From an uncultured Chromatiaceae bacterium (lineage in GTDB: Bacteria; Pseudomonadota; Gammaproteobacteria; Tenderiales; Tenderiaceae), in assembly GCA_945787735.1 (NCBI GenBank), contig CALZIQ010000002.1:5654-69653 (forward strand): a stretch of 64,000 nt of DNA. Reading direction: 5' to 3'. Position 1 is the first letter of the stretch, and every line of letters starts with the position of its first letter. The translations under genes were made by a program, and so were the position numbers. A model generated the notes under the pieces. The model was given only the letters and a program-made list of their open reading frames with translations. It made no database searches and had not been told where the DNA came from. Shown here piece by piece: positions 20,494-38,527 of this stretch.

Positions 20494-21271
20494 CAAGCCA
20501 AGAATCGCCGTGCACAAGTTCAGCTCGTGCGATGGCTGCCAGCTTGCCTTGCTTAATCTGGGAGAGCCGCTATTAACCCTGGCCGAGCTGGTCGAGATTA
20601 TTCACTTTGCTGAGGCGGGTCCGGTTGAGCCTGATGCCGAGATTGATATCGCCTTTGTCGAAGGCAGCATTACCACACCGGATGAAAAAGAACGCATCCA
20701 GCGTGTGCGCGCCAATAGTCGTTATCTGATCACGATTGGAGCCTGCGCCACTGCCGGTGGTTTGCAGGCGCTGCGCAATAATGCCAATGCCAGCGATTGG
20801 ATGGCGGCGGTCTATCCTTCGCCTGAATTCATCGACACGCTAAGCACTTCAACTGCTATTGCTGAACACGTGCGGGTTGATTTCGAATTGTGGGGTTGTC
20901 CTATTAACAGTCAACAAATTGTGGCGGTGGTGCGAGCCCTGCTGTTTGGTGTGACGCCTGTGAAAGAAAATGACAGCCTCTGCATGGAGTGCAAACGCCA
21001 AGGCAATGTCTGCGTGCTGGTGACGCAACAGCAAGCTTGCATGGGGCCGGTGACCCAGACCGGCTGTGGTGCCCTGTGTCCCAGCTTCGGGCGCGATTGC
21101 TATGGTTGCTATGGCCCCAAGGAAAATGCTAATGCCGATTCCCTGTCGCAGCGTTTTCAGGGCTTTGGTCTAATGCCAAAAGAGATCGCACGCAGGTTTC
21201 TGCTCATCAACAATCATGCCCCGGCGTTTGCCGAGGCGGGCCAAAAAGCGATAGAAGCCGAGCATGACTGA
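20471..21271 (+). CDS. hydD: Group 3b hydrogenase delta (small) subunit
   Basis: SSCDGCQ, EGSITT, GACATAGG, GCP, CMECK..C..CMGPVT..GCGALCP...CYGC; no Tat signal. Confidence 0.92.
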   Translation: MSVIKTPNKPRIAVHKFSSCDGCQLALLNLGEPLLTLAELVEIIHFAEAGPVEPDAEIDIAFVEGSITTPDEKERIQRVRANSRYLITIGACATAGGLQALRNNANASDWMAAVYPSPEFIDTLSTSTAIAEHVRVDFELWGCPINSQQIVAVVRALLFGVTPVKENDSLCMECKRQGNVCVLVTQQQACMGPVTQTGCGALCPSFGRDCYGCYGPKENANADSLSQRFQGFGLMPKEIARRFLLINNHAPAFAEAGQKAIEAEHD

Positions 21272-22562
21272 GCTGCGTGATACCTCCATTCGAGTGCCGG
21301 TGTTGGCCCGGGTTGAGGGCGAAGGTGCGCTTGATCTTGAGATCCGTAAGGGCAAGATCGAAGCATTAAAATTGCGCATCTTTGAACCGCCGCGCTTGTT
21401 TGAAAAGTTTCTTGAAGGCCGGGGCTATGACGAAGTGCCGGACATTGTTGCACGCATCTGTGGCATCTGTCCGGTGGCTTATCAAATGAGTGCCGTGCAT
21501 GCTATCGAACAGGTGTTTGAGTGTGATCCCGGACCTTGGGTTCGAGCTATGCGCAGGCTGCTTTATTGTGGTGAGTGGTTAGAGAGCCATAGTCTGCACA
21601 TCCATTTGTTGGCGCTGCCTGATTTTCTCGGTTTTAGCGATGTCACCGCGATGGCAAAGCAGTATCCCGATGAAGTGAAACGTGGTCTGGCTCTACAGGA
21701 GATCGGTAATGCCCTGGTCCGTTTTCTGGGTGGGCGTTCAGTCCATCCGGTCGGGGTGCGTGTGGGGGGCTTTTACAAGGCGCCGTCTGCCAATGATGCC
21801 AAGGCGTTGTTACAAAACGTGCAGGCGCAACTGCCTAATGCCGAAGCGCTGTTGCGCTGGAGTGCAACACTTGACCTGCCTGATGCGCCTCAGCAGTTTG
21901 TCAGTTGCTCAATCAAACATGCAGCGGAATACCCGATGAACGAAGGCCGTATCGTCACCGATGTAGGGCATGATCTGGCGATTGATGCATTCGATCAACA
22001 CTTCAAGGAGCATCAGGCGCCGCATTCTACTGCCTTCCATTGTCACCTCGATGGCAAACCTTATATGGTCGGTCCATTGGCGCGATTGAACCTACACTGG
22101 CAACAGCTACCTGATTCACTAAAAGCGTTGATGCGGGAGTGTGGTATTCTATGGCCCAGCGCTAACATGTTTCATAGCCTCATCGCGCGGGCAGTAGAGA
22201 TTTATTATGCCTTGCTTGAGGCATGTAGCATTCTTGAAAATTATTCAATACCAGACAGCCCATATACAGAGGTCACGCCTAAGGCTGGGGTTGGTTATGG
22301 CTGCACCGAGGCGCCACGCGGCATGTTGTGGCATCGCTATGAGCTGAATGATGTTGGCGAGATTATGCATTCCATCATCGTGCCGCCTACCAGCCAGAAC
22401 CAGGCCAGGATAGAACAGGATCTGCATGACGATCTTCTAACGTTTGGTTTGAACAATTCGGACGATGCCCTGCGGCTGCGTGCCGAGACGGTGATTCGCA
22501 ATTACGATCCCTGTATCTCCTGTTCAACCCACTTCCTCGATCTGCGTGTTAAACGCGACTGA
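21264..22562 (+). CDS. hydA: Group 3b [NiFe] hydrogenase alpha (large) subunit
   Basis: RVEGEG, L1 RICGIC, EAPRG, L2 DPCISCSTH with a short cleavable tail FLDLRVKRD. Confidence 0.95.
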   Translation: MTELRDTSIRVPVLARVEGEGALDLEIRKGKIEALKLRIFEPPRLFEKFLEGRGYDEVPDIVARICGICPVAYQMSAVHAIEQVFECDPGPWVRAMRRLLYCGEWLESHSLHIHLLALPDFLGFSDVTAMAKQYPDEVKRGLALQEIGNALVRFLGGRSVHPVGVRVGGFYKAPSANDAKALLQNVQAQLPNAEALLRWSATLDLPDAPQQFVSCSIKHAAEYPMNEGRIVTDVGHDLAIDAFDQHFKEHQAPHSTAFHCHLDGKPYMVGPLARLNLHWQQLPDSLKALMRECGILWPSANMFHSLIARAVEIYYALLEACSILENYSIPDSPYTEVTPKAGVGYGCTEAPRGMLWHRYELNDVGEIMHSIIVPPTSQNQARIEQDLHDDLLTFGLNNSDDALRLRAETVIRNYDPCISCSTHFLDLRVKRD

Positions 22563-22952
22563 TGCACTGCCTCCAGCGCGGGTGTTGGGGGTTGGCTCTC
22601 CCTTTGGTCTGGATCAGATTGGCTGGCGTTTGCTTGAAGTCCTGCAACAGTCGACACGCCTCATGCCTTATCTAAATAAACAGCTCATGTTGGAAGCCGT
22701 TGACTGGCCGGGTGTCAATTTGCTGCATTATTTTGATCAGGCGCAGTATGTGCTGCTGTTGGATGCGGTGCTGGGTGATGATTGCCCTCTGGGTGAAGCT
22801 AGGTGTTATTCCATGATGAGGTTCAGCGTGCTGGGCGGCTCAATTCCAGTCATGGCTTTGGGGTGCAAGAGGCGCTTAGCCTGGCCAACACTCTGGGCCA
22901 GCTATCTAAAAACTTGGAGATTGTCAGTGTATCGGTTGGCGGCGATGCCTAG
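22546..22952 (+). pseudogene. Hydrogenase maturation protease, frameshifted
   Basis: First frame gives RVLGVGSPFGLDQIG...LLLDAV; the conserved SSHGFGVQEALSLA..LG continues in the -1 frame from ~22809 to TAG 22950-22952. Confidence 0.8.
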
Positions 22953-23004
22953 CACACAAAAATCGACTGGAATGTAACTATTTCGGCGCTGGCCGTGTCT
23001 TTAG

Positions 23005-25787: not shown

Positions 25788-25814
25788 GGAACCTTTTGTG
25801 AGCAGGTAGCGTGT
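25788..25814 (+). promoter_or_regulatory. ECF sigma-type promoter upstream of the sigma gene
   Basis: GGAACC-N16-CGTGT; the same motif and spacing recur at 26447-26473. Confidence 0.7.
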
Positions 25815-25921
25815 AAGCAAGGATATCTCCCTGTCTGTCCCCTAGTTGCGTAATCCGATTTAAGCTTTGTTTAAGTTTCGCTTTCTAGCATGGAATCAGT
25901 AAAGCCATAGAGCGGAATATC

Positions 25922-26476
25922 ATGACAACTCTTTTCTCACGCTGGCGGAATAACCAAAGTGCATTTGAAGCGTTGGTGATGCCGCATGTCAACGGTCTTT
26001 ACCGATTGGCGTACCACTATTGTGGTCAGCAATCGGATGCGGAGGATCTGGTGCAAGAACTGTTGCTCAAGCTGATTCATCGCATTGAGGACATGCAAAA
26101 GGTAGAACGGTTGCGTCCTTGGTTGGCCAAAGCGCTTTATCACCTGTTTATCGATCGGCTTCGAAGCCAGCAGCGCAGCCCAATTGACGCGATGCAGCCA
26201 GAGCAGCTGGAAATCCTGCAAGAAGGGTCAGTTTCAGGTGAGAGCAGTGAACGGCTTGTTTTGATAGACAATATTGCCCGAGCGCTGCGCCAACTCAATC
26301 ATGAACAACGCATGCTGGTGGTCATGCATGATGTGGAGAATTATACGCTAGCCGAGCTGGAATCGATTCTCGATACCCCTATCGGCACGCTCAAATCCCG
26401 CCTGCACCGGGCGCGGGCAAAATTGCGCCAGATTCTAACCGATGAAGGAACCAAATCCCTCTCAACAGCGTGTTAA
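25922..26476 (+). CDS. ECF RNA polymerase sigma factor
   Basis: LYRLA...DAEDLVQE...RPWL (region 2); PIGTLKSRLHRARAKLR (region 4). Confidence 0.95.
   Translation: MTTLFSRWRNNQSAFEALVMPHVNGLYRLAYHYCGQQSDAEDLVQELLLKLIHRIEDMQKVERLRPWLAKALYHLFIDRLRSQQRSPIDAMQPEQLEILQEGSVSGESSERLVLIDNIARALRQLNHEQRMLVVMHDVENYTLAELESILDTPIGTLKSRLHRARAKLRQILTDEGTKSLSTAC
26447..26473 (+). promoter_or_regulatory. Second ECF-type promoter inside the 3' end of the sigma gene
   Basis: GGAACC-N16-CGTGT, 22 nt before the anti-sigma start codon. Confidence 0.7.
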
Positions 26477-26495
26477 TACTTGAGAGGATAACAAA

Positions 26496-27173
26496 ATGAA
26501 TTGTGAACAAACGCAACAACGATTGGACGATTACCTGGATGGAGACCTCAACCTCAGGGAAGAGGCCGAGCTGCACGCTCATCTCGATCAGTGCAAGACA
26601 TGTCGAGTGCGGGTGCGGCAGGCGGAAGAGGTCCTGACCGGTCTGAAGGTAGTGAAGGTTCCGGAGATGACGCCGGGCTTCGCTCATCAGGCCGTTCGCC
26701 AGGCAGCCAATCAGATCAAACCACGTTCACACCGCACAGCTTTTGTGGCGGGATTCAGTTCTGCTTTGGTGGCGGGGTTGGCCTTGGTGTTTGTCATTGC
26801 CGGTTTGTTGCCAGATCACAGCGATATCAGCACAGAAATGCTACCGCAGGTGGCAATTTCAGTTGAAACACCACAAACAGTCAATCTTGCCTTTGATCTT
26901 GCGAATGCAATTCAAAATGCCACTCTCAGTATCGATTTGCCAGAGCATATCGAAGTGGTTGGGTTTCCCGGACTCAGACGCTTGTCTTGGCAAACAAATC
27001 TGACCCGGGGGCGCAATGTCTTGCCTTTGCCATTAAAAGGGGTTGCGCAGACAAACGGTGAATTGGTCGCCACGGTTGAGCATGATGGCAAGACCAAGAG
27101 CATTCGAATCAATGTGCGGGTTGATGAACAGCTGACGCCTAAAGCTGATCTAGCCACGCTTAAATTGGTATAG
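26496..27173 (+). CDS. Zinc-binding anti-sigma factor (zf-HC2) with TM helix and periplasmic beta domain
   Basis: MNCE...LDDYLDGDL...HLDQCKTC (HxxxCxxC); one TM; beta-rich C-terminal domain (LSWQTNL..GRNVLPLP); GAGG RBS. Confidence 0.9.
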   Translation: MNCEQTQQRLDDYLDGDLNLREEAELHAHLDQCKTCRVRVRQAEEVLTGLKVVKVPEMTPGFAHQAVRQAANQIKPRSHRTAFVAGFSSALVAGLALVFVIAGLLPDHSDISTEMLPQVAISVETPQTVNLAFDLANAIQNATLSIDLPEHIEVVGFPGLRRLSWQTNLTRGRNVLPLPLKGVAQTNGELVATVEHDGKTKSIRINVRVDEQLTPKADLATLKLV

Positions 27174-27199
27174 ATTGCGGCATGAACAGGAGTTGTTTG

Positions 27200-27823
27200 G
27201 TGAAAAAGTTCAAATTGACAGCCGTTGTCGTTGCAATGTTGAGCCTGACTGTACCCGTGCATGCGCGTGATTTTGATGATGACATCACGATTCAGGTTAT
27301 TGAAGCCTTTGAAGATGAACGCAACGGGGAGGATGTCAGATTTATTGAGCTACCTGACATCAGGTCTCAGGAAGCGCATGAGGCGATGGAACGTGTGCAA
27401 GAGCGCCTACAAGAGCGTGAATGGGAATTAGAACGCGAGCATGAGCGTAATGAGCAGGATGAACATCTGGAAGAGCATGACCGCGATGAGCTTAAGGATG
27501 AGCACAGCGATGATGAACGTGATGACCTGGAAGATTCGCGTGATGAAAACGACCGTGACGAGTATCAGGAGTCCCGCGACGATATTGCCGACGATCTAGT
27601 TGATGAGCGAGATGAGATCAATGACGACCTGGGTGATGAGGTGCGTGATGAATTGCTTGAAGACAGTCATAGCGAAAGCCAGGAGCTGCGTGACGATGTA
27701 AGCGAAGACGATCACGCAGAAGAATCCGAAGAAGAACGAGATGATCGAGATGAGTGGGATGATCATGAAGAGTCCGAGGATGAGAGAGACAATGAAACGT
27801 CTGAGGATGATGATCGTCGATGA
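27200..27823 (+). CDS. Secreted highly acidic low-complexity protein
   Basis: AGGAG RBS + GTG; signal MKKFKLTAVVVAMLSLTVPVHA; mature region about half Asp/Glu (hand count 90 of 185) with scattered His. Confidence 0.8.
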   Translation: MKKFKLTAVVVAMLSLTVPVHARDFDDDITIQVIEAFEDERNGEDVRFIELPDIRSQEAHEAMERVQERLQEREWELEREHERNEQDEHLEEHDRDELKDEHSDDERDDLEDSRDENDRDEYQESRDDIADDLVDERDEINDDLGDEVRDELLEDSHSESQELRDDVSEDDHAEESEEERDDRDEWDDHEESEDERDNETSEDDDRR

Positions 27824-27879
27824 CTGCAATTGATTTATCTGCAAGTGGTCAGTTGTTTATGTCAATGGAAAAAAGCTGA

Positions 27880-29187
27880 ATGGAATTTGGGCTGACATTT
27901 TGCAATCTTTGCCTCTCGATGCTGATGGCGACTGCGTCGCTCGTGGTCTCGGCTGACACGCCCTTCGAGCGCGGTGTGAGCGCTTTTAAAGTGCAGAACT
28001 ATCAGTCAGCGCTGGAATGGTTCAAACAGTCACGCAGGGAAGGCAATGCTTCAGCGATTTTGGATTTTAATCTTGCTTCGAGTTACTACAAACTGGGGCG
28101 CTTGCCCGAGGCTAAACGCTATTACATCAAATCATCCAATAATAAAAATTTAGCTGCGCTGAGTTATTACAATCTTGGCCTGATTGCCTTGAGTGTCAAT
28201 GACAAACAGGCTGCCTATCAGGCCTTTCGCAGAAGTTTTGAAACTGCGCAGAATGATAGGCTCAAGTTTCTGGCGGCAAAACATCTTGATGAGTTGATGG
28301 CAGAGAACAAGGAAAAATCAGCGCCTGATGCTGTTTCTGGTTTTGTGAGTTTTGGTCTTGGCCATGACGATAATGTGGCCAATGTCAGCGACGATGTGAC
28401 GACAGTCAGCAATAAGTCAGACACTTACTTGGATCTGTTCGGTATTGTCAATTATCAGCTCAGTGGTAGCCGGCGTGACGGCGTCTACTTGAAGGCAGGG
28501 CTGGTGCTGACACGCTATGATGATCTCACCCGCTACAATGAGAATATGTTCAATCTCGGAATTTTTCTAACACAGCCGCTGGCGGATTGGAAAACGCGTC
28601 TCGGCTTGGTCTACTTTCATGACAGTCTTGATGGTGACTCATTTCAACAGCGTACTGCTTTACAGTTGCGTGCGGATAAATACTATTCGAAAGGACAACG
28701 ACTGAGGTTAAAGTACGAGTTAAGCCTTTATGATGATCTGGATGTGCGTTATGCCTATCTGAATGGTACACGGCAGCGCTTTACAATCGAGAATCGAAGT
28801 TATCTCAACAGGCATAGCTTACGTCTTGGTTACAGGTTGGAGACAAATCAGCGAGACAATCTTGTGTCTGCGTCCAGCTTTTTCAGCTATTCACCCACAC
28901 GCCAGAGTTTATATGGTTCATACGATTACATGTTTAGTGAGAAGTGGGGCGGGCAGTTGTCGGCTGAATATCGCGATAGTGATTATGAAGATGCCAATAT
29001 CAGTGCTGGTACGAATCTCGGTGTGCAGCACGATAAACGTAGCCGCTATGGCTTGACCGGAATCTACCGACTCAGTCGCGATAGCGAGTTGGAAATCGGT
29101 TGGCGTCATACCAATAATCGATCAAACATCAGTGCCGAGGTTTATGACAGTAGTGAGGTGATGTTAGGTATTAGTCACTTTTTCTGA
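27880..29187 (+). CDS. Outer-membrane beta-barrel with N-terminal TPRs (Slam/DUF560-like architecture)
   Basis: Signal peptide, TPR motifs (FNLASSYYKLG, YYNLGLIA), alternating amphipathic strands from GFVSFGLGHDDNV, C-terminal Phe (GISHFF). Confidence 0.72.
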   Translation: MEFGLTFCNLCLSMLMATASLVVSADTPFERGVSAFKVQNYQSALEWFKQSRREGNASAILDFNLASSYYKLGRLPEAKRYYIKSSNNKNLAALSYYNLGLIALSVNDKQAAYQAFRRSFETAQNDRLKFLAAKHLDELMAENKEKSAPDAVSGFVSFGLGHDDNVANVSDDVTTVSNKSDTYLDLFGIVNYQLSGSRRDGVYLKAGLVLTRYDDLTRYNENMFNLGIFLTQPLADWKTRLGLVYFHDSLDGDSFQQRTALQLRADKYYSKGQRLRLKYELSLYDDLDVRYAYLNGTRQRFTIENRSYLNRHSLRLGYRLETNQRDNLVSASSFFSYSPTRQSLYGSYDYMFSEKWGGQLSAEYRDSDYEDANISAGTNLGVQHDKRSRYGLTGIYRLSRDSELEIGWRHTNNRSNISAEVYDSSEVMLGISHFF

Positions 29188-37141: not shown

Positions 37142-38527
37142 ATGTTGCAAGTATTCAATAACCTAAGCAATAAAAAGGAAGTATTTAAGCCCATCAAGCC
37201 GGGCAAAGTGGGTATGTATGTCTGCGGGATGACCGTATATGACTACTGTCACGTCGGCCATGCCCGCGTGTTGGTTGTGTTCGACATGATCGCCCGTTAT
37301 TTGCGTTATTCCGGCTATGAGGTCACTTATGTGCGCAATATTACCGATATCGATGACAAGATCATCAATCGTGCCAACGAAAACGGTGAGAGCATCGACA
37401 ACCTGACGGGTCGCTTTATAGAAGCCATGCACGAGGATGCCGCGGCGCTGGGTGTTCTGCCGCCAGATCAGGAACCCAAGGCCACCACCTCCATGGATCA
37501 GATCATCGCTATGATTATCGCTTTGGTGGACAAGGGACTTGCCTACGCCGCCGACAACGGCGATGTTTATTACGATGTCAGCAAATTTGACGGTTACGGC
37601 AAGCTGTCAGGTAAAAAGATCGAAGATCTGCGTGCCGGTGAGCGTGTTGCAGTGGGTGAGGGCAAAGATGACCCGCTCGATTTTGTATTATGGAAAGCAG
37701 CTAAGCCAGATGAGCCGAGTTGGGAATCGCCCTGGGGGGCTGGGCGTCCTGGCTGGCATATCGAGTGCTCAGCCATGTCGACACACTGTCTTGGTGATCA
37801 CTTCGACATCCATGGTGGCGGTCTGGATCTGCAGTTTCCCCATCACGAAAACGAGATCGCCCAGAGTGAAGGGGCGACCGGCTGTCAGTTCGTCAATTAT
37901 TGGATTCACAACGGTTTTGTCCAGATAAAGGAAGAAAAGATGTCCAAGTCGCTGGGTAACTTTTTTACCTTGCGCGAAGTCTTGAAGCAATATGCCCCCG
38001 AAGTGATGCGCTATTTCATCCTGGCGAGCCACTATCGCAGCCCGCTGAATTACTCTGATCAAAACCTCGACAGTGCCAAAGCGGCATTGGAACGTTTTTA
38101 CACTGCCCTGCGTGGTACGGAAGTGACTGAGGTCGCTGATGGTGGTGAATATGAGGCGCGTTTCCGCAAGGCGATGGACGATGATTTCAACACCGCCGAG
38201 GCACTTGCTGTGTTATTTGATCTTGCCAATGTCCTGAATAGAGCCAAGGCAGATGGCAATGCCGAACTAGCTGGCCAACTTGCCGGGCAATTGCAATATC
38301 TCGCTGGTGTTCTCGGCCTACTGCAGGACGATGCCGAAGCATTCCTGAAAGGCAGTGGTGTTGCTGGCGGTCTAACTGATATGGAAATTGATGGCCTAAT
38401 TGAACAGCGCAACACGGCGAAAAAAGACAAAAATTGGGCCGAGGCTGATCGCATTCGCGACGAGTTACAGGCACAAGGCATTACTCTGGAGGACGGCGCT
38501 GGCGGCACCACGTGGCGGCGAGGCTGA
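37142..38527 (+). CDS. cysS: Cysteine--tRNA ligase
   Basis: [34 protein letters not shown]. Confidence 0.98.

Follow-up and report, generated by a model that had tools for sequence, protein, structure and literature searches.

What does a sigma factor of the extracytoplasmic function (ECF) kind with its own anti-sigma factor control when the next two genes encode a poly-acidic exported protein and an outer-membrane barrel? The question is raised by a four-gene cassette in a 64,000-nt stretch of DNA (the window) from an uncultured Chromatiaceae bacterium, whose genome is designated G000; other G labels and the L labels denote the genomes and loci compared with it. All four genes lie on the + strand within 25788..29187. 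They encode a group 4 ECF sigma factor of 184 amino acids (aa) (25922..26476), a single-pass zinc-binding anti-sigma (ZAS) factor of 225 aa with a predicted periplasmic beta-sandwich (26496..27173), a small Sec-exported protein of 207 aa (27200..27823), and a 435-aa outer-membrane protein in which tetratricopeptide repeats (TPRs) precede a beta-barrel (27880..29187). The intergenic gaps are 19, 26, and 56 nt, the second being counted from a GTG at 27200; it is 8 nt from the ATG at 27182, an alternative start that gives an open reading frame (ORF) of 213 aa (27182..27823). GTG is favored because AGGAG precedes it and because it fits the MKPFKL start of the orthologs. A preliminary description had listed four tightly packed co-directional genes with these gaps, an ECF sigma, a transmembrane anti-sigma with a periplasmic beta domain, a Sec-exported protein of about 50% D/E, a barrel with N-terminal TPRs and the architecture of Slam/DUF560 proteins, and two matching ECF promoters, all of which the analyses below bear out. 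Our preferred answer, held with middling confidence, is that the cassette is a dedicated ECF sigma/anti-sigma switch and serves mainly to produce a divergent type 11 (Slam/DUF560-like) outer-membrane protein (OMP) together with a partner protein.

The barrel protein carries a signal peptide and matches TPR_1/TPR_2 in Pfam. A model generated with AlphaFold2 (AF2) from a 50-sequence alignment (predicted local distance difference test [pLDDT], 91.9) has seven TPR helices at residues 28-143, that is, 3.5 TPRs, and a barrel of 14 strands at residues 152-434. This is the composition of Slam proteins: type 11 OMPs (Slam1/2, NilB, HrpB; DUF560/SlipAM, PF04575) likewise combine a periplasmic N-terminal TPR domain with a 14-strand barrel of ~290 residues, features that the text of PMC8406197 gives for the family. 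The likeness extends to the sequence. Aligned with hhalign, the profile of the 50-sequence barrel family matched that of ten PF04575-passing proteins at 99.9% (E 1.7e-33) over 402 columns, which span the TPR domain and the whole barrel and include the common motifs GxD(D/S)NV and N-SN...Y-R. The ten comparison proteins came from a scan of 201 genomes of the class, G000 included, and have no cassette genes in the flanking DNA examined. The strongest single canonical member (152 bits) was matched by the family profile at 81.6% (E 1.1e-5, 220 columns). In the 201-genome scan the barrel ortholog of G010 scored 20.6 bits with PF04575, just below the 22-bit gathering score, and the family member at L117, which has a small-protein gene upstream, passes the cut-off with 26.3 bits. 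Because the alignment with PF04575-passing proteins is full length, despite the failure of PF04575 to match the window protein itself, we conclude from these profiles that the window barrel is a remote homolog of type 11 OMPs lying outside the current Pfam model. The resemblance in architecture pointed out earlier thus reflects true, if remote, homology.

Other matches of the barrel are less informative. BBP2_2 (PF10082) reaches 24.7 bits, a marginal score against a gathering score of 23.7 (E 1.3e-5), and covers only residues 348-431, or profile positions 300-374 of 378; to our knowledge, no function has been assigned to this family, so the match adds no mechanism. Foldseek ranked BcsC, also a chain of TPRs and barrel, first for the model (E 6.6e-12), followed by the 14-strand barrels CymA and OmpG. 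An independent structure search returned CymA (Z 21.0), OmpG (Z 20.5), and PelB (Z 15.1), with three-TPR peptide-binding modules for the N-terminal domain, and there was no Slam structure among the matches listed in these searches. Exopolysaccharide porins of the BcsC/PgaA/PelB type share the joining of TPRs and barrel in one chain, but they have long TPR arrays and 16 strands rather than 14 (PMC8406197, in the part that compares the two groups), compared with 3.5 TPRs and 14 strands in the window protein. An exopolysaccharide porin was rejected on the strand number and because no conserved polysaccharide synthase genes occur near the cassette. A resemblance of the modeled TPR domain to carboxylate-clamp TPRs (Hop/Sti1/CHIP type) was set aside, as the conserved Asn belongs to the general TPR consensus. 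Outside the window, G000 has a second TPR-barrel ORF of ~440 aa (contig C6:585-1901; L108), with a weak PF04575 match (E 0.078), a match to our family hidden Markov model (HMM) at E 5.5e-17, and no adjoining cassette genes in the DNA examined.

The candidate client gene lies directly upstream of the barrel gene. Its product has a signal peptide with predicted cleavage after VHA, followed by the motif DITIQVIE...RFIELP, a short helix, and a poly-acidic tail of ~120 aa. The mature protein of 185 aa contains 90 D+E (49%), for a net charge of about -66; beyond residue 90 the tail is 55% D/E and has no hydrophobic strands. No Pfam or NCBIfam family and no lipobox was found in it. A single-sequence homolog search with residues 1-90 returned nothing, and the family emerged only by profile search. 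In Protein Atlas, a stored homolog gave only "hypothetical protein" clusters with scores of 0.81-0.82, under the useful range. With the N-terminal profile, 612 cluster representatives pass E<=1e-3, and 81 of them also pass E<=1e-10; three aside, the best 150 of the 612 are short proteins (61-285 aa) in which the match begins at or near the N-terminus. When 34 representatives were scanned against Pfam, 26 were unmatched, 5 had one weak match below cut-off, and three long TPR or PKD repeat proteins proved to be spurious members.

Across the family, conservation covers the signal peptide and ~30 residues of the pattern (D/E)(V/I/L)T(I/M)x(V/M)(I/M)(E/D), 10-14 residues, (I/L)(E/D)LP, whose alternating hydrophobic pattern suggests a beta-hairpin. 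The remainder varies in length and composition, with orthologs measuring 114-252 aa overall. In 45 orthologs the D/E fraction of the tail runs from 0.09 to 0.65 (median 0.30), 39 have a pI of <5, and some tails are His/Met-rich. Extreme acidity, by which the protein had been characterized earlier, is therefore common in the family without defining it; what defines the family is the N-terminal DVTIxVxE...IELP motif of the putative hairpin.

We examined how constantly these genes travel together. Most carriers are metagenome bins, 60-100% complete, so that absences reported here mean "not found." The barrel protein has matches in 14 of 41 genomes of the same family, G000 included (E<=0.001), near full length in G001-G004, G010, G013, and G014. 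In eight related loci tblastn matched the barrel every time, the anti-sigma seven times, and the sigma six times, one of the loci being truncated by a contig edge; all eight have, directly 5' of the barrel gene, a signal-peptide gene encoding a charged, mostly acidic tail, and seven have sigma and/or anti-sigma upstream. A scan of species representatives with a 15-sequence barrel alignment yielded 75 loci, 63 of them with a strong barrel match. Forty-seven barrel loci have at least 2.5 kb of upstream DNA, in which sigma plus anti-sigma are encoded 40 times, the small protein (by HMM) 41 times, and all three 39 times. The reverse search, with the small-protein N-terminal profile, gave 28 loci in 26 of 401 genomes of the class; at 25 of them the small-protein gene is preceded by those for sigma and anti-sigma and followed by that for the barrel, and the three exceptions are the weakest matches. 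The neighborhood first seen at one locus is thus conserved. At L041 all four genes are kept in the permuted order barrel, sigma, anti-sigma, small protein, and at L084 the small-protein gene has diverged. Four loci (L030, L036, L020, L117) pair the small protein with the barrel but show no sigma genes in the flanking DNA examined. All-against-all clustering of flanking ORFs revealed four gene families only, with no fifth widely conserved one. Small protein and barrel are near-obligate neighbors that also pair without the sigma genes, and thus make up the functional core of the cassette.

Carriers are mostly uncultured Gammaproteobacteria (Chromatiales, Ectothiorhodospiraceae, Thioalkalispiraceae, Acidiferrobacterales, Thiohalomonadales); three loci of the cassette scan are labeled Desulfobacterales, Desulfobacteraceae, or Desulfurivibrionaceae, and the cultured carriers are Marinobacter shengliensis, a Marinobacter sp., and Microbulbifer hainanensis. 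At five barrel-only loci, a different small secreted protein is encoded on the opposite strand. It belongs to a second family whose mature N-terminus reads HHPAADIVDPEVYAMIEEN, followed by Met/Asp-rich repeats (DMTRDM...), found at L045, L050, L052, L057, L059, L044, L032, and L034 (e.g., L057:4365-4811, minus strand). The genes for these proteins diverge from barrel genes that have neither the sigma pair nor the hairpin protein. The HHPAADIVDPEVYAMIEEN family, which has the look of a metal binder, may be an alternative partner of the barrel.

The regulatory half of the cassette consists of recognizable components. The sigma factor matches Sigma70_r2 (E 5.4e-16) and Sigma70_r4_2 (E 5.8e-13) in Pfam and TIGR02937 in NCBIfam (86 bits versus a cut-off of 42.9), and no NCBIfam equivalog model reaches its own cut-off. 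It comprises sigma2 and sigma4 regions only, and a zf-HC2 gene follows 19 nt downstream, as in group 4 ECF factors; the closest solved structures are SigH/SigE of Mycobacterium tuberculosis and SigW (E 1e-19 to 2.6e-16). The anti-sigma matches zf-HC2 (E 5.2e-10), a domain present in 42 of 49 members of its family. Its N-terminal H-x3-C-x2-C with an upstream Cys is the ZAS signature, and C3, H29, C33, and C36, the predicted zinc ligands, are invariant across the 49 sequences. The profile matches RsiW (E 2.8e-9), the nearest solved relative of the N-terminal domain. In an AF2 model from the 49-sequence alignment (pLDDT 82.6), cytoplasmic helices at 3-73 are followed by a low-confidence hydrophobic segment at ~83-105 and by a beta-sandwich at 118-210 with pLDDT >90. 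The sandwich has a generic immunoglobulin (Ig)/macroglobulin-like fold from which structural matches gave no functional lead; W165, G172, N174, and P179 are invariant in it. No FecR domain was matched in the anti-sigma or its 48 relatives. The window pair has its cytoplasmic domains and the -35 GGAAC/-10 CGT type of promoter in common with SigW-RsiW of Bacillus subtilis and with mycobacterial SigH/SigE, from which it differs in periplasmic domain, regulon, and host envelope. Second sigma/anti-sigma copies with the same junction promoter (see below) occur in Microbulbifer hainanensis G218 (L131/L133) and in G216 (L134), and the C-terminus of the Microbulbifer paralog, ...GTIESSYAC, resembles the ...GTKSLSTAC of the window sigma.

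This constant company raises the possibility of cell-surface signaling, in which the barrel would act as a sensor in the outer membrane and the small protein would serve as go-between in the periplasm. The hairpin would bind either the TPR domain of the barrel or the Ig-like domain of the anti-sigma, and failed docking under envelope damage or cation stress would free the sigma. The logic would be that of FecA-FecR-FecI or RcsF-OMP-IgaA, with sensor genes doubling as output as fecA does. The beta-sandwich with its four invariant residues is a plausible protein-binding domain, the four genes stay together even in permuted order, and the sigma pair accompanies 25 of 28 small-protein loci. There is also a precedent in the ECF102 SigX operon of Pseudomonas aeruginosa (CfrX, CmpX, OprF), which joins a putative anti-sigma with an outer-membrane porin thought to be regulatory, as the text of PMC7826278 describes it; that operon differs in its unrelated barrel (OprF/OmpA) and has neither a small hairpin protein nor a TPR domain. 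However, the four pairs of small protein and barrel without a sigma pair count against signaling, a tail that is long and evolves fast would be difficult to account for in a protein serving purely as go-between, and no TonB box, FecR domain, or TonB-dependent receptor was found. We ranked action of the barrel on the small protein, to which we give an even chance, above signaling because such pairs occur without the sigma genes; signaling is the best placed of the alternatives and still rather unlikely. Signaling of the FecIR type proper was rejected, as there is neither a FecR domain nor a receptor gene, and clustering of the flanking ORFs disclosed no conserved gene for TonB or a TonB-dependent receptor.

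Two promoter-like elements link the regulator to the other genes. P1 (25788..25814, + strand), GGAACCTTTT-N-CGTGT, was identified by pattern match and position weight matrix (PWM) and lies 108 nt 5' of the sigma start codon. P2 (26447..26476, + strand), GGAACC-N16-CGTGTTAA, falls within the last 10 sigma codons and begins 49 nt before the anti-sigma start. The GGAAC-N17-CGT motifs occupy 25788-25812 and 26447-26471. On its own, this pattern shows no enrichment in the window (3 occurrences versus 5.9 expected from shuffles), and the strict form GGAACC-N15-17-CGTGT occurs five times in the 6.1 million positions of G000, against ~4.4 expected; two of the five sites are those of the cassette, 660 nt apart. 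We take P1 and P2 to be real because they are conserved at the same places in other genomes. Of 49 loci, 37 carry a P2-like GGAAC-N15-18-CGT at the junction of the two regulatory genes, either within the 3' end of the sigma gene or shortly after its stop codon; the consensus is tGGAACCtTTt-N-CGTGTTAA, and the GGAAC-to-CGT spacer measures 17 nt in 33 of 38 sites. The motif begins ~50 nt before the anti-sigma gene in 18 of 22 further loci, a set that overlaps the earlier loci and is not independent. The encoded peptide varies by lineage (...GT....AC*, ...EPF....RVN.., ...DGTF*), and some motifs lie beyond the stop codon; since peptide and frame vary, it is the DNA and not the protein that is conserved at P2. 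In the window the sigma gene stops at the TAA within the CGTGTTAA box, and other lineages read the same DNA as R-V-N or past the stop. Twenty of 47 loci, that of the window among them, have a P1-like motif within the 300 nt preceding the sigma gene. The third match in the window (38089-38113; 17.0 bits) stands before an internal ATG of an apparent tRNA-synthetase C-terminal region and is most likely due to chance. A scan for sigma-70 promoters and terminators found sites no more numerous than in shuffled sequence.

With a PWM built from 33 junction sites, a scan of the whole G000 genome ranked P1 (22.6 bits), a site on contig C35 (21.7 bits), and P2 (21.5 bits) first, the next site scoring 17.0. 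The C35 site is 34 nt before a gene outside the window (C35:14038-15453; L096:5039-6457) for a 472-aa lipoprotein with DUF4382 and DUF5666 that ends in a poly-Asp/Asn/Ser tail. The motif is kept in six of nine related loci (own genome, G001, G003, G004, G009, G010) and absent before the gene of G008 and a 36%-identical paralog in G004; the ninth locus has no upstream DNA. Among distant genomes, G216, G223, and G228 have the motif before a DUF4382 lipoprotein gene; it was not found before the DUF4382 genes of G224 and G220 or before a second one in G223. On these grounds, the sigma probably recognizes GGAACC(T)TT-N-CGTGTTAA, with P1 preceding its own gene (autoregulation) and P2 predicted to drive the anti-sigma, small protein, and TPR-barrel genes; P1, P2, and the unlinked lipoprotein gene would make up a three-promoter regulon in this genome. 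The circuit had been supposed to be self-contained, which it is not fully, as its promoter motif also stands before the unlinked lipoprotein gene. On C35 there is also a 707-aa secreted repeat protein (L096:9582-11705) ending in GGGGGG, a hydrophobic helix, and RRLRI, a C-terminus that may be a sorting signal, to judge from its GlyGly-CTERM-like look.

The regulon allows for a Slam-like lipoprotein system in which the DUF4382/DUF5666 lipoprotein is the real client, flipped to the surface as TbpB is by Slam, with the small acidic protein helping as holdase or adaptor in the periplasm. Lipoproteins make up most of the known Slam clients, as far as PMC12282271 lists them. The shared promoter in the own genome, five relatives, and three distant genomes argues for such a role, as does Marinobacter G228, where the lipoprotein gene adjoins the cassette and is divergent to it. 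Motif-bearing orthologs end in poly-Asp tails, and the G008 ortholog has neither motif nor tail in a genome without a barrel match, a single case. Against it, only 4 of 10 further cassette genomes have a DUF4382 gene (not found in 6), the motif being present in 2 of the 4 and missing in 2, and G002 has the cassette and no match to the lipoprotein. Moreover, the only Pfam domains of the lipoprotein are DUF4382 and DUF5666, not TbpBBD, and the invariant neighbor of the barrel is the small protein. We regard this alternative as improbable. Least probable, and very unlikely in our estimate, is a metal or cation stress buffer in which an OmpG/CymA-like diffusion channel and a disordered periplasmic cation sponge on the model of PcoE/SilE are both ECF-induced: the best structural matches of the barrel, the D/E-rich and in some members H/M-rich tails, a weak sub-cut-off Metal_resist match (PF13801, E 0.0017) in one member of the small-protein family, and the Met/Asp-rich proteins at barrel-only loci speak for it, but full-length DUF560 homology and a conserved periplasmic TPR domain point to protein handling, the conserved hairpin is left without a role, and the tail of the window protein has 0 Met and 6 His in 123 residues.

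We return to a switch that controls a type 11 OMP acting on its partner. The anti-sigma would keep the sigma bound to the inner membrane. On a signal from the periplasm, or a thiol/zinc signal, the anti-sigma would be removed, probably by regulated proteolysis, the way in which RsiW releases its sigma factor. Freed sigma would raise its own level and, via P2, that of the anti-sigma, as negative feedback, along with the barrel and the small protein. The periplasmic TPR domain of the barrel, or its lumen, would recognize the N-terminal beta-hairpin of the small protein. The barrel would then pass the tail of that protein, which is disordered and usually polyanionic, out to the medium or the surface of the cell, where the tail may bind cations, be they metals, Ca2+/Mg2+, or cationic peptides. 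A second candidate client of the barrel would be the co-regulated lipoprotein. Export or surface display of the small protein through the barrel, and its cation binding, are the parts we infer from gene content and sequence features.

Several observations weigh against this account. PF04575 does not match the window barrel at E<=0.1, and did not do so when all six frames of the genome were searched at E<=1. In the 50 barrel-family members (E<0.01) it matches only 3 (as SlipAM), versus 34 for BBP2_2, with OMP_b-brl in 14 and TPR_Slam in 6. A 14-strand barrel could equally well be that of a porin. The small protein matches no family of any kind and lacks the C-terminal 8-strand barrel that, in the text of PMC12282271, unites known type 11 cargo; canonical cargo, often lipoproteins, carries this TbpBBD/lipoprotein C type barrel. 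Nor is acidity universal, the pI being >=5 in 6 of 45 orthologs and 9.9 in one. P1-like motifs are found upstream of the sigma gene in only 20 of the 47 loci, and 12 of 49 junctions have no P2. Finally, the link to the lipoprotein is patchy, as the counts above show; to the cassette of G002 without a lipoprotein match can be added G007, which has the lipoprotein and no barrel match.

A more elaborate version, a long shot in our view, combines export and sensing in a plug-and-barrel arrangement. The hairpin would be seated in the barrel or its TPR domain with the tail threaded out as a surface brush, and unthreaded protein would be caught by the Ig-like domain of the anti-sigma, turning the sigma on. 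If this were true, threading would fail upon outer-membrane assembly defects, or when cations or cationic peptides collapse the tail. The system would then be an ECF equivalent of RcsF-OMP-IgaA surveillance with a type 11 OMP as its scaffold, and the small protein would be a type 11 client with an N-terminal rather than a C-terminal recognition signal.

The cassette is flanked by ppsA (-) and by pgm (-)/htpG (+). Upstream of ppsA, at 21264-22977, lies an ORF of 432 aa that resembles the large subunit of [NiFe]-hydrogenase, overlapped by 17 nt by a following 143-aa ORF that is probably a maturation protease; both were named by eye from their translations.

How far is this combination new? The known type 11 OMPs resemble the window protein in full-length profile homology, and the window offers a candidate client gene directly upstream. 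The window protein differs in scoring below the Pfam model, in having its own ZAS-type ECF switch, in a neighbor that is no lipoprotein, has no C-terminal 8-strand barrel, and conserves an N-terminal hairpin instead, and in being carried by free-living, mostly uncultured Gammaproteobacteria and not by animal-associated bacteria. Supplement file 1 of PMC12282271 names Sigma70_r2, Sigma70_r4_2, FecR, and TonB among the families that co-occur with type 11 genes of cluster 1. Such FecI/FecR pairs likewise place an ECF sigma and a membrane anti-sigma next to a type 11 OMP gene, but the window anti-sigma is a zf-HC2 protein with an Ig-like domain, not FecR, and a promoter lies inside the cassette. 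The words "sigma" and "ECF" are absent from the main texts of PMC12282271 and PMC8406197. No literature pairing DUF560 with an anti-sigma was found, nor anything related on DUF4382 in the portion of the literature covered. The TPR-barrel context did not appear in the passages considered of the ECF reclassification paper PMC7826278, whose supplements may list the ECF group of the cassette. The view that this is not a characterized system thus stands: no published description was found, and, in the portion of PMC12282271 concerned, ECF genes near type 11 OMP genes appear only as the FecI/FecR type. Neither ECF sigma/anti-sigma pairs nor type 11 OMPs are new as kinds of element; the novelty is the variant in which they are combined with this small-protein family.

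Few clients are known for type 11 OMPs outside the animal-associated cluster, and marine cluster 3 proteins are rarely accompanied by canonical cargo, according to the text of PMC12282271. The cassette represents a divergent clade with a near-obligate partner from an unannotated family. It also has a dedicated regulator with a sharply defined promoter, so that the regulon can be read from sequence alone, and the cultured, non-pathogenic carriers Marinobacter shengliensis and Microbulbifer hainanensis make it testable. P2 in itself is a clean example of overlapping coding and regulatory constraints: a promoter that sits in the final codons of the gene for its own regulator and is preserved whichever frame a lineage reads there. 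If the partner is exported by means of its N-terminal hairpin as a signal, the range of type 11 substrates, and of the signals by which they are recognized, would be wider than the known cargo suggests.

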